From: Saccostrea cucullata
Taxonomy: Eukaryota
Assembly (NCBI RefSeq): GCF_032062105.1
Contig: NW_026932430.1
Span: forward strand, 186,001-250,000
Length of the DNA stretch: 64,000 nucleotides
Direction: 5' to 3'
Shown: in pieces, positions 15,001 to 24,000 of the stretch
How the letters are laid out: each line of letters starts with the position of its first letter
Numbering within the stretch: position 1 is the stretch's first letter
Position numbers and translations under genes: made by a program
The notes under the pieces: generated by a model
Database searches by the model: none
Told to the model about the DNA's origin: nothing
Seen by the model: the letters and a program-made list of their open reading frames with translations, nothing else

Positions 15001-18000
15001 AAAAGAGAGGAAGGAAAAGAATAAGAAAGATGATTCCCACTCATCACATAAATCAAAGTCAAACTCGAGTTCAAAATCTAGCAGTCACAAGCATGATAGA
15101 GAAAACAGAAAACGTAAGCATGACCAGGATGGAAAACCAGAATCCAAAAAGTCCCGCTCCAATAGCACAGATGTTGCTTCTTTTGAGGAAAGCATCGCTA
15201 TCCCTGTCAAAAAACCCAAAGCTGATCCAAATTATGAAAAACTTAAATCCAAGTTTAAGATAAAAAAGAAAGGAGAAGTACCCAAAGAACCAAAACCCAG
15301 AAATGAGAAGTTAGTGTGTGATACATCAGAGGCCGAGAGCAATAAGAAACTAAAGGTTCCTGTTCCAGGGTCAAAGGTCAGAACACTGAGTTAAAGATAT
15401 ACTTATAATCTGTTATCAGCTTTCCAGGTTAAAAATGCTATATCAGTCTTTTATTTTCCATGCCAATTGTCTTTAATATTTATAAATGAAGACTTTTCAT
15501 GGAACCATTTAATATTGTAACGTTTTCGCCGTTACGAGTTCGTAAGATAGGATAAAATAATTATTTTATTAGAAAATTGGTATTTGTAATGTATATGCCT
15601 GGTCGCGGCTAATATCTGGTCTTATAATTTCTGGTAGCGAAATTATGAATAAACCTGGTAGCGGTCTTTTACTAAAGAAATAAACTCAAAGATAATAAAG
15701 TTTTCAAAAATTATATTCTGTTATTCCAAAATTTAATAATGATAGTCAATAAATTAACAAACAATTTATATTTCAAAAATATGGTCACACGCGTACAACG
15801 TCACTTGCTAGATTCAAATAATTCCCCAAATTTCAGATAAAGTTAAAGTAAATTTCTAATACGAAATTTCCTAAATACAATTAAATAAATTATCACAAAT
15901 TCCAATTAAATTACCTGGACATTTCACAAATAGTCTGGTAGCGACCACAAAATAGGTAATATAAATCCACAAGGGCTGACACTTCAAAATAACTCTTAAA
16001 ATATTTTTACGTCCGTCCACTAACATCTGAAAATCCCAACTCACTTCTAAAACTAAACGTTAACACAAAGTGACGTCGCACGACCTAACGTGACGTTATA
16101 AACCGCGAAATCGCGACACATTCTAGGTAAGACTTGTACATAATTTCCCGCGACCGGAAGTAATGGAAAACGAAAGTAAACATGTGAAATGACAGAATGA
16201 CTTATAAATAAGGTAAAACAATGATGTACAACATGTTTAAATGTAATATAAACATACAATAATAATGAATGAATCTTCCGGTCGGAATAAATTAAAACCA
16301 CAACATATTTCAATGTAGATAAACACACATTTCAAATATATACACAGTCAAAATCGTTACATCACCCCCTCACTACAAAAGATTCGTCCTCGAATCTTGG
16401 GGATAAAAAAAATGATTTTACACATTTAATAAATTCATCCATAAATACAATCTTCATAACATTTACAAATATGAATAATTTGTGTTACCATGAACCCAAC
16501 TTACCAACTGTTCAACAAGAGTTCAATAACACATACATACAATGTATAATAAATAAAACATGTAGATCCTTTTTCACGAAAAGTCCGTCTGTGTAGCTGC
16601 ATTAACAGTGATCTTGGCAATGAAGCACTGGTTCTTGAAGTAGAAGAATGGACTGTCTGGCGAAAAGGAAAACTCAGCAGATGTGGAAAGTCCTACAGGT
16701 CCGTCAGAGCAGGTACTGTTCCTGGCAGCAGATGGTAGGCTGAGGTCCAGTGGCTCTTCTAGCGTGGTGACTGCAGGAACGGGGGATGCGGGTTCCACAG
16801 GAGCACAATCAGGAGTGTTCAAAGACTCATGGACAGGTTCAGGAACAAAGGTCTTGGGATCCTGAAATGACAATAGTTCAGGAAAAGACAGCCCCGGAAA
16901 ATCCAAGTCGAGTAGATCCAAAGGGTCCTCCTGATGTAGCGACTCCACAGAAGAAACATCAGAATAAACAGGTGAGGGCGGTTTCACAGATGTTTCTGGT
17001 AAGTGCATCTTGGTTGTTGGTCTTTTATTTTCAACGACAGGCTTCCCATCTTTACTACGGTGTACATTTTCCTCATGTTTCTTAAGTAGATATTTCCTGG
17101 TTTGGGGCACTGAATAATAACAGAAGGAGCAGAAGACTCTGTCACCATGGGCATTCCTCTGGTGACGAGACAGTTTGTGTTTGGAAAAGAACCTCCGTCC
17201 ACAGTCATCACATTGATGCAAAGGTTCCTCAGAGGGAGCAGCAAGGTATCCCAGATATCTATTAACACTAATAATAAATAAAAATTGATTAAATACAAAA
17301 GTTCATTAACACAAATTTACATGTATAAACATTTCAATCTTTGGTCTGATATATTATTGGGCATTTTGGGTCCCCTGGGCACGGGTGTTTCTATCACTCG
17401 GCGGTACAAACCACTTTCTCATTCTCCCAAAATATGGTTTCAATCTATTGACATGTACAACTTTTGACTTGGAATTTGAAGAAGTCTTAATTTCATAAAT
17501 CAAATCTGACACTTTTCTAACTATAGTGTAGGGTCCCTCCCATTTACACATAAGTTTTGGTGATTTCCCCTTAATTTTCGCTGGGTTAAATAACAAAACA
17601 CCATCCCCTAGGGTAAAAGTTTGGTCATTGGTCTTAAGGTCATAATATTTCTTTTGTCTGTCACTAGCTTTCAAAATATTTTCACGAGCACATTCATGCA
17701 CATTCCACAATTTTGTTACAAGGTCTTGTACATAATCGGACACTATTTTGCGGTCTGGGGATTTTCCATACAACAAATCAACCGGTAAAAGGGGTTCACG
17801 ACCGGACATCATAAAACACGGAGATTCCTTAGTGCTCTCTTGAATAGAGGACCTGTATGCTAGCATCACAAATGGTAATTTTCTGTCCCAATCTCTTTGA
17901 CTTTTGTTAATGGTTTTACTAAGCATATCGATAATTGTCCTGTTTATTCTCTCTACAAGTCCATCACTTTGAGGGTGGTAAGGAGAGGTTCTTGTTTGAT

Positions 18001-21000: not shown

Positions 21001-24000
21001 TATGTAACACAGAAACTGAGGCTCCAGTATCAATCAAACAATTTATTTTTCTATCATTCAATTTTGCAACAACAAATAAACTATCACTGCGGGCCTCTTT
21101 GATTTCAAATATTTGCTCTTTAGGTCTATCATTGTCATTCGGTTCACAAGTTTGGGTTTTAGCATCACAGGCTGAGACTTGACCTACAGGCTCAGCCTCT
21201 GGTCGTTTAAAGGACCGTTAGCGCAATCACGTGCACGCATAATCTCAGAGGTTTCGGACCTCTCCGCAAAGTTTGGTTTGTCGTTCATTCTTTGGGAGGA
21301 AATGTTTAATTTTCCCGATTGTAGATCATACTGGCGTTTTCTACACTTATTTTTAAAATGACCCGGTTTCCCACAATAGAAACATTTCTTTGTCTCATTT
21401 CTGTTATTTGAGAGGTCTGATCGCGAGACATTGGTCTGGGAATTTTCACCAATTACATACAGGTCTTTATAGCTTTGGTCACAAATCTCTTGCTGGTAAC
21501 GCAAATGTGGAGAATTTGTGTACTTCCGATTTCTGCTTATTTTGAAAGCCTCAAATTTCAACGCGAGGTTTAACGCTTCGTCAATATTTTCGGACGCGCT
21601 CTGACAAATTGCCCATTCCATATCTTGGTCATGTAAGGCATCGCGGAAACATTTATATGCCAAAGTATCCCTAACTTCACCCGGGGCTGTGGGATAAGCA
21701 AGTCTGGCTAATCGTTTTATATCTTGGGCTAATTCAGGGAGGCTTTCGTCTCTTTTCCGATACCGGCTATTCATTTCTGCGCGGTACATTTCAGTTTGAT
21801 TCTTTGGTTCGAAGCGAGTTTGGAGAACAAATTTTAACTCATAATAATCTTCAAGCTGATGGGGTCTAAGATCAGTCAGAACACTTCTGGCTGAGCCTCT
21901 CAAACAAGCTGCTAACTGTAGGGCCTTAATCTCACTGGACCAGTTATTTAACCGACATACAATTTCAAACTGAGTGATAAAATCTGTCCAACTAGATCTG
22001 CCGTCATAAGTGTCGGGTTTTGCTCTGACAGTCTGTCGAGTCTGGTTTTGATTTTCATAATTTGGTCTGAACGGATTAAAATCCGATGGTCTATCTAAAA
22101 CATTATGAGGGTGTACCTGTGTTCGCGTATCGAATGAACGAAAACGTGACTGGTTTGCGTCACTGGGCAGAGTATGTCTATGGTCATCAGGCTCACTCAC
22201 TCTGTCAATCGTTCTGTAATCACTGTACTCACTTCTACAGTCTGTCATGTTATGGTCTTTGTCAACCAAACGATCTAAAGTCTCTGTAAGTTTCTGTAAC
22301 ACAGTAGAGATATCACAAATCTGGGACTGCATAGAATTCACTTTAGTTTCCATATCAGGGCTTGGTTCACCCCCACCCTGGTCATTGGGGTTTACATTAC
22401 TATCACGGGATTCTGCCATTTTATTTCACTGGGGAGAATCTAGCAAGTGTAAATTAAGAATAACAAATTTTCCTGCACAAATTAATTTTATCCTATCCCA
22501 CCGCTGCCACCAAAATGTAACGTTTTCGCCGTTACGAGTTCGTAAGATAGGATAAAATAATTATTTTATTAGAAAATTGGTATTTGTAATGTATATGCCT
22601 GGTCGCGGCTAATATCTGGTCTTATAATTTCTGGTAGCGAAATTATGAATAAACCTGGTAGCGGTCTTTTACTAAAGAAATAAACTCAAAGATAATAAAG
22701 TTTTCAAAAATTATATTCTGTTATTCCAAACTTTAATAATGATAGTCAATAAATTAACAACAATTTATATTTCAAAAATATGGTCACACGCGTACAACGT
22801 CACTTGCTAGATTCAAATAATTCCCCAAATTTCAGATAAAGTTAAAGTAAATTTCTAATACGAAATTTCCTAAATACAATTAAATAAATTATCACAAATT
22901 CCAATTAAATTACCTGGACATTTCACAAATAGTCTGGTAGCGACCACAAAATAGGTAATATAAATCCACAAGGGCTGACACTTCAAAATAACTCTTAAAA
23001 TATTTTTACGTCCGTCTACTAACATCTGAAAATCCCAACTCTTCTAAAACTAAACGTTAACACAAAGTGACGTCGCACGACCCAACGTGACGTTATAAAC
23101 CGCGAAATCGCGACACATTCTAGGTAAGACTTGTACATAATTTCCCGCGACCGGAAGTAATGGAAAATGAAAGTAAACATGTGAAATGACAGAATGACTT
23201 ATAAATAAGGTAAAACAATGATGTACAACATGTTTAAATGTAATATAAACATACAATAATAATGAATGAATCTTCCGGTCGGAATAAATTAAAACCACAA
23301 CATATTTCAATGTAGATAAACACACATTTCAAATATATACACAGTCAAAATCGTTACAATATTTTAGCTGAAGCTTTCTGAAAGAGACCTTGCTGGCCTC
23401 GTTCGTAATAATGTCACAGCCACTTACCGCAACTTTGAGGAGGTTCCGTCCGCGACTGCTCAGTTTGACGACTCTCTGATTGGACAGAAAAGTTACGCCA
23501 AGACCCAGGTGTACTCAGGAAAGAGGAATAATGCTGTCCCGAAGGTTTACTCACTTCAGGAAATCTGCATTAATCTTCTTATGAACTACATCGATAGTAA
23601 GTGTTGTAAAACTTGTCAAGTTTGAAGAAAAAAGAGAAATTTCTGAGTTTACATACCTGTAATTTTTTTTATCTCAAAGTGAAGGTTTTAACAAGTTTAT
23701 TCAACTTTATTGAATGGATGCAAATAAAACTGTCACCTTGAACAAAAATATTTATTATGAAAACCACCATGTTTTCAGATTAAAGTACAATATGTGGATT
23801 CATTTTAAGCATTTTGAAACTTATGTATTGCTGATTCATGAACTTAGTTGTGGGGTTACTTCTTATATGTATGGACTTAGAATAAACCCTAAAGTATTAA
23901 TTTAATCTGATTAATAAACAATATCACGTAAGTATTTTTTTCCCAGGTATTGAAGCTGTTGGAAGTTCTGTGCCATTCTACATACTTGAACCAGTGCTTA

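Follow-up and report, generated by a model that had tools for sequence, protein, structure and literature searches.

A predicted splice from within the long terminal repeat to a conserved zinc-finger reading frame in a Gypsy retrotransposon of Saccostrea cucullata

Within a 64,000-nucleotide (nt) stretch of a Saccostrea cucullata contig (the window, whose internal positions are used throughout), we characterised a Gypsy-type long terminal repeat (LTR) retrotransposon that lies on the minus strand at 15516-23358 and carries, behind gag and pol, a third open reading frame (ORF3) encoding two C2H2 zinc fingers. We consider it likely that this finger protein is made from a spliced, LTR-derived subgenomic RNA, alongside the unspliced gag-pol RNA. 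According to this proposal, a single promoter in the 5′ LTR would give rise to two sense transcripts. One of them, unspliced, would serve both as genome and as gag-pol message, the ATG within the LTR opening there a mere three-codon upstream ORF. In the second RNA, the donor at 22913 would be spliced to a first AG (17268), perhaps sometimes to a second one (17259), removing the primer-binding site (PBS), gag and pol, and the LTR ATG would then start a two-finger protein of 233 amino acids (aa). An original prediction, drawn from the letters of the window, had suggested such splicing from an 8-nt coding mini-exon in the 5′ LTR; its positions for the ATG, the donor GT and both AGs are all correct (Table 1). 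The arrangement of other families, the selection acting on ORF3 and the use of the donor in RNA now speak for that idea, and the LTR-to-ORF3 junction itself was not seen in thinly covered RNA.

ORF3 is a working gene under purifying selection that needs an upstream start. Its frame is open from 17302 to a TGA at 16576-16574 and, as predicted, has no ATG before the fingers, the single in-frame ATG lying past both of them at 17008; yet its first 75 codons are under selection, with ratios of nonsynonymous to synonymous changes (pN/pS) of 0.15, 0.16, 0.16 and 0.23 against four diverged copies, hence the need for a start further upstream. Over the whole of ORF3, pN/pS ranged from 0.17 to 0.32 against these four copies and reached 0.57 against the nearest one, which shows no synonymous change in the first 75 codons. 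The second finger was read directly from the sequence and is conserved in relatives, a profile of ORF3 relatives matched solved C2H2 proteins (best E 4e-22), and for ORF3 Pfam returned no families other than C2H2. The fingers are followed by an acidic proline- and serine-rich middle part, the motif PLDLS and a terminal TQT. Among 15 proteins checked, PxDLS occurred in five (the window and 4 of its 14 relatives) and TQT near the C-terminus in seven (the window, L103, L179, P0037, P0098, P0179 and P0180, where L-numbers denote related copies and P-numbers related proteins), P0180 being the only strict LC8 match; the patterns, P-x-[DEN]-L-[VAST] for CtBP and [KR]-x-TQT for LC8, are those given in excerpts of PMC3534220. 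The named relatives of ORF3 come from an oyster and from scallops. The relatives possess, in addition, a conserved domain of about 85 aa at the C-terminus, most of which is missing in the window family; it was observed in L103 (7891-8211), L154 (1597-1905) and P0037, which come from this genome and from scallops. This domain had no Pfam match, and a weak model (predicted local distance difference test score, pLDDT, 59) consisted of one helix and a three-stranded sheet, with no clear fold (best Z 5.2) and no viral match at E 0.001, a poor model that is not evidence of a new fold. A search of the ESM Atlas with P0037 gave generic finger clusters only.

The LTR holds a candidate for the required start. 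Its mini-exon ends at the strongest of the 59 GT dinucleotides of the LTR, as scored with our own approximate splice matrices, a caveat that counts against the proposal wherever donors and acceptors are ranked, and 76 of 2000 dinucleotide-shuffled LTRs contained an equally strong donor with an open phase-2 start within 62 nt. Between the mini-exon and gag, not a single ATG occurs in 499 nt, versus a mean of 8.36 in shuffled sequences, none of 2000 shuffles being as low, while the first 291 nt of the LTR contain 7 ATG for 6.8 expected; the 499-nt stretch thus bears the mark of a leader that is scanned, with one ATG retained. On the unspliced RNA, the upstream ORF opened by this ATG is ended by a TAA within the donor. 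Further upstream, the nearest ATG (23025) does not share the phase of ORF3, and transcription therefore probably starts between 23024 and 22922. The ATG and the GT were intact, at this spacing, in 21 of the 27 family LTR loci scored (28 were examined, and two of the 27 were misaligned). We also observed a pyrimidine-rich AG on the minus strand at 22430-22429, 10 nt before the gag ATG, a possible second target of the donor that would give a PBS-less gag-pol message.

RNA reads demonstrate that the family LTR donor works. Four of 24 runs (X1, X4, X15 and X16) were aligned to positions 16362-23450, a joint being listed when supported by at least three reads. In X16, six reads break away from the LTR exactly at 22914, and their loose part matches two places of the genome, with 1 and 2 mismatches in 30, each directly behind an TTTTCTCAG acceptor; the donor is therefore functional and is spliced into a host exon in this run. 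The two places (L032, G000:C16349:820573-820602, and L033, G000:C10425:12802-12831) belong to a duplicated gene, with the long frame of whose exon the LTR ATG is out of phase. Use of the candidate poly(A) signal at 22570 would put the mini-exon and the donor, which lie upstream of it, inside the repeated region (R), so that 3′ LTRs and solo LTRs would carry them too; the splices into host exons would be accounted for in this way.

At the other end of the predicted intron, two AGs are available (Table 1). Both resume at codon position 3 and are thus phase-compatible with the donor (all three sites being phase 2, as predicted), giving a joined product of 702 nt (233 aa and a stop) after an intron of 5646 nt for the first AG (17269-17268), or of 693 nt (230 aa and a stop) after 5655 nt for the second (17260-17259). 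Among ten copies compared, three of them near-identical, the first AG was kept in nine and the second in eight; a stretch of 69 nt without AG precedes the first. The 12 codons before the first AG fall out of frame among copies, with gaps of 1 to 13 nt in L020, L026, L027 and L028. Furthermore, the RefSeq model XP_061170136.1 of Saccostrea echinata starts with M-S-S-V-H-R-Y-L-G, the sequence expected if a mini-exon encoding M-S is spliced to the first AG, a suggestive support for the upstream acceptor, and V-[NH]-R-Y, encoded between the two AGs, is kept in this oyster model and in another relative. The first AG is thus the likelier acceptor, and the second, which the original prediction had favoured with its 693-nt join, is probably secondary, given the higher score of the first and the retention of S-V-H-R-Y upstream of the second.

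A matching architecture was found in distant families of the genome, whose pol is 44-50% identical. Among 18 distant finger matches examined of the 25 listed, 16 lie directly behind an integrase on the same strand; the finger was not found in L181, L180 gave no clear result, and five finger matches of P0037 (L173-L175, L177 and L178), having no pol within 1.5 kb, were excluded. An integrase tree of 20 rows, restricted to elements of this genome and with its deep branches unresolved, separates the window family, L104/L105, L103 with L110-L113, L179, and a clade of L106-L109 with L116-L118. In L103, L110, L111, L113 and L179, a T-rich tract and a CAG stand at or just before the own ATG of ORF3, with acceptor ranks of 1/510, 1/117, 1/285, 3/236 and 1/382, respectively, and L112, L114, L115, L121 and L122 display the same sequence arrangement at the start of ORF3. 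In L104 and L105, ORF3 lacks an ATG and is preceded by an acceptor of phase 2; the best of 55 donors in the LTR of L104, the one scored in this lineage, leaves AT at the exon end and G is the first base behind the acceptor, whereby the splice would itself create the start codon (AT/G), and this AAT/GT recurs in each of 11 further LTR copies. The donor follows ACGTCA at 155 nt in the window, 109 nt in L103, 144 nt in L104 and 92 nt in L179, whose LTR ends are provisional, and the order TTCCGG, ACGTCA, ACGTCA, donor is common to the window, L103 and L104. Three integrase lineages besides the window family, four in all, thus share the layout of donor and acceptor, and the start codon would vary in position among them, lying in the mini-exon (window), across the junction (L104/L105) or after the acceptor (L103 group and L179).

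Several observations weigh against this reconstruction. The joints listed for the four thinly covered runs include none that links 22914 with 17267 or 17258, an absence that says little because the depth at the start of ORF3 was 1-1.6 in X15 and 0 in X16, the two runs with raw reads amounting to only 44 and 111 reads. The LTR contigs of X1 and X4 run through the donor unspliced, a search of this assembly found no LTR in the 39 kb and 12.8 kb that precede the two host exons, and the deepest RNA over ORF3 is spliced in antisense. Within the family, the 10-mer from ATG to donor ranks 85th of 350 windows for conservation, which is not unusual, and conservation, to which the original prediction had appealed, therefore does not single out the donor at this level. 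Elsewhere, the match of L104 alone was reached in 396 of 2000 shuffles and its donor window is outranked in conservation by 100 of 553 windows, the acceptors of L104 (32/409) and L105 (84/484) rank low, and the donor of L103 comes second of 55. In the scallop relatives, the first codon is an ATG located on contigs of 7 kb, and the evidence from the oyster model is its protein sequence. Finally, two lineages, L106-L109 and L116-L119, do not fit the layout: they have their own ATG and no good acceptor (ranks 115-267 of about 512), lack such a promoter block, and have no strong LTR donor in three of the four LTRs scored. These elements appear to use another route. They form a sister clade with a different, acidic two-finger ORF3, and a possible internal promoter exists in L106-L109, whose ATG is preceded at about 45 nt by the TATA-like motif TATAAAA.

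ORF3 could be spliced from another first exon or donor, for instance within gag, or might chiefly use the second AG. The env genes of the idefix subclade do take their first exon from gag (excerpts of PMC12992720), the second AG is in phase and well kept among copies, and the LTR donor might instead serve the AG before gag or poly(A) control. This alternative is nonetheless unlikely, for the LTR donor is the best among the GTs of its LTR, is in phase and occupies a position common to four lineages, and the first AG outscores the second, stands behind the AG-free stretch and is followed by the conserved V-[NH]-R-Y. There is a slim chance that a promoter located behind pol drives ORF3, translation beginning at a non-AUG codon or, in a shortened version, at the ATG of 17008. 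A gene caller did begin the 95%-identical relative P0178 at an I-I-S-V-N region, and L106-L109 offer the precedent of a TATAAAA without any acceptor; against it, the codons before the first AG lose the frame among copies, a start at 17008 would drop the fingers, the most strongly selected part, and the T-rich AG-free tract is also found in families that have their own ATG.

The antisense RNA raises a further alternative, namely that the sense sites arose by chance, that ORF3 is a captured decaying fragment and that the antisense-spliced transcript is the RNA that matters. Such splicing is indeed seen in RNA: a first GT..AG intron in an X4 contig and in X15 reads, and a second one into pol in an X1 contig, whose sites are present in the window (Table 1). 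The source of this RNA is a relative about 90% identical, distinct from each of the 12 assembled copies compared, which share at most 13 of its 39 variants, and the X4 antisense exon ending at 17245 runs on into a different repeat. The depth of 72-143 over ORF3 in X4, versus 0.3-13 over most of pol, was considered as a trace of the subgenomic sense RNA and rejected, the contig being spliced on the opposite strand. The lack of most of the C-terminal domain in the window family and the many broken family copies also fit decay. We regard this explanation as very improbable, since it is the sense frame of ORF3 that is under purifying selection, the distant finger matches lie almost all behind an integrase on the same strand, and relatives exist in oysters and scallops. 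Read-through of stop codons, by which Pol would continue at its C-terminus into ORF3, is suggested by their shared frame and was rejected as scarcely credible: three stops lie in between (a TAA, then TAA-TGA 15 codons on), and neither the length nor the frame of the spacer is constant across copies and families.

Table 1. Features of the retrotransposon in the window, with their strand and the evidence for each.
Feature	Position	Strand	Evidence or remark
5′ LTR	23358-22516	-	843 nt, TG...CA; pairs with 16361-15516
Promoter-like block	23156-23068	-	TTCCGG then two ACGTCA; order repeated in LTRs of two distant families
Mini-exon, coding part	22921-22914	-	8 nt: ATG (22921-22919) and 5 nt, phase 2
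ATG-free leader, mini-exon to gag	22918-22420	-	0 ATG in 499 nt
Splice donor GT, CAG/GTAATT	22913-22912	-	Rank 1 of 59 GT in LTR; used in RNA
Predicted intron	22913-17268	-	5646 nt: PBS, gag, pol; inferred
Candidate poly(A) signal AATAAA, 5′ LTR copy	22570-22565	-	Sequence motif
Primer-binding site	22512-22495	-	Would be lost with the predicted intron
gag	22419-21184	-	Open frame, CCHC knuckle
pol	21217-17354	-	Open frame; protease, reverse transcriptase, RNase H, integrase (Gypsy order)
Preferred acceptor: T-rich tract and first AG (17269-17268)	17300-17268	-	Rank 4 of 391 interior AGs
ORF3 main exon	17267-16574	-	Open frame and selection
Second AG, in phase, 9 nt past the first; candidate alternative acceptor	17260-17259	-	Rank 22 of 391
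Two C2H2-type fingers	17218-17060	-	Finger 1 Pfam zf-C2H2_4, E 2.3e-4, under curated cut-off
PLDLS	16753-16739	-	Fits ELM CtBP-binding pattern
C-terminal TQT	16594-16586	-	LC8 (DYNLL)-like core, A-A-TQT, without the K/R of the strict pattern
Polypurine tract	16374-16362	-	Sequence
3′ LTR	16361-15516	-	Holds identical copy of ATG and donor
Antisense GT..AG intron	16972-17089	+	X4 contig, depth 127.5; X15, 4 reads at 3 starts; sites in window
Second antisense GT..AG intron, into pol	17246-18652	+	One X1 contig, depth 5.8; pyrimidine-rich acceptor in window

The element displays the characters of Ty3/Gypsy (Metaviridae) retrotransposons, namely direct TG...CA LTRs, a target duplication, gag followed by protease, reverse transcriptase, RNase H and integrase, a PBS and a polypurine tract. 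Its LTRs differ by 4 mismatches over 843 aligned nt and a single 3-nt gap, and it is flanked by a 4-bp duplication (ATAT), both indicating a young insertion. The block at 23156-23068 is a putative promoter, in which we take TTCCGG to be an ETS-like and ACGTCA a CRE (cAMP response element)-like motif. The PBS motif is common to the window element, L103, L107, L109 and L120 and presumably matches tRNA-Leu; the tRNA itself was not found, ARAGORN recognising none in the 4 pattern matches examined of 145. Internally deleted copies lack gag and pol and retain ORF3 (L021, 6846; L023, 2349; L028-L030): L021 and L023 have in common one deletion, from about 22389 to 17798, at a short GTGAACC-like repeat, and L028-L030 form a second group. 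The 5′ LTR of L021 is devoid of the donor region, and in L179 (8300-9901) LTR-side sequence is duplicated and inverted around a 35-nt tandem repeat. The insertion lies in an intron (15377-23367, plus strand) of an Elongin A-like host gene (Pfam Med26 and Elongin_A), where it splits the acceptor AG (23366-23367), only 7 nt past the element, from the rest of a 144-nt intron; the host splice was present in reads of all four RNA runs, from animals that may be without the insertion. Elsewhere in the window, an inverted repeat (3281-6817) with arms of about 1045 nt at 99% identity is typical of a young DNA transposon, and an array at 53682-55891, C-rich on the plus strand, has a 54/57-nt period, a multiple of three, and may therefore be coding.

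ORF3 is devoid of hydrophobic segments (19-residue means reach 0.83 at best) and of the furin motif R-x-[RK]-R; because it fails this envelope test, the element is a Gypsy retrotransposon and not an errantivirus. Spliced regulators occur in complex retroviruses, such as the deltaretroviruses with Tax/Rex and the antisense HBZ, and the foamy viruses, in which the major donor lies in the R region of the LTR. The window element recalls them through its in-LTR donor, regulator-like spliced product, CRE-like block and spliced antisense RNA, but no sequence homology was found or is claimed, the element has no env, and the regulatory role of ORF3 is putative. According to excerpts of PMC12992720, the main env exon of errantiviruses can acquire its start in three ways, by splicing to a short exon that lies before gag and encodes a peptide, to an AU dinucleotide, or to gag itself. 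The env-F of insect errantiviruses (ZAM/Beagle, springer and idefix subclades) is, like ORF3 of the window, a third ORF after pol, and it is expressed through a subgenomic spliced RNA, as proposed here for ORF3; their peptide exon upstream of gag resembles that of the window, and the AU completed by splicing that of L104 (same excerpts). Unlike in these insect elements, ORF3 of the window encodes two C2H2 fingers and not an envelope, the donor is within the LTR, upstream of the PBS, and the host is a bivalve. The LTR elements of bdelloid rotifers likewise carry non-env ORF3s behind pol, encoding a GDSL esterase or a DEDDy exonuclease, typically produced from spliced messages, and they include a non-autonomous family that retains ORF3 (excerpts of PMC5408684). 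They differ in their cargo, the words ‘zinc’ and ‘finger’ not occurring in the main text of PMC5408684. The sORF1 and sORF2 of the MDG1 group are also accessory non-env ORFs of Gypsy elements, but lie mostly upstream of gag, show no evidence of splicing, and, for sORF2, encode a membrane fusogen (bioRxiv 10.1101/2025.03.14.642691). Our literature searches returned no account of this finger ORF3, or of a zinc-finger cargo with an in-LTR donor; supplements, Repbase, Dfam, GyDB and subscription journals were outside these searches, and the family may be recorded there. In their main texts, a survey of mollusc LTR elements (PMC6238403), which names Gypsy clades such as the C-clade and MolGy1-16, does not use the terms ‘ORF’ or ‘zinc’, and PMC13524379 does not mention zinc fingers. 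The mechanism is already known from insect env genes, and the zinc-finger cargo and the in-LTR donor are what would distinguish the present case.

As to function, there is about an even chance that the protein is a nuclear, nucleic-acid-binding regulator of the element, to which CtBP would be recruited by PLDLS and which TQT may dimerise through LC8. More tentatively, a bivalve-wide ‘complex’ Gypsy lineage is conceivable, though doubtful on present evidence, in which an in-LTR splice would yield a zinc-finger regulator that, by way of CtBP and LC8, targets either the LTR or host silencing; the start codon would have shifted between first exon, junction and second exon from family to family, and spliced antisense RNA across ORF3 would oppose the regulator, as in complex retroviruses. 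Retrotransposons without env are usually thought to require gag and pol only and to depend on the transcription factors of the host. Should the splice prove real, a lineage distributed across this genome, and found also in oysters and scallops, has a dedicated message for a conserved zinc-finger protein, the expression trick of envelope genes having been put to a different job. This explains the annotation of such genes as host ‘PLAGL2-like’ or uncharacterised zinc-finger genes, and the LTR donor has proved able to splice into host exons. The element thus provides a directly testable candidate for a regulator encoded by a retrotransposon.

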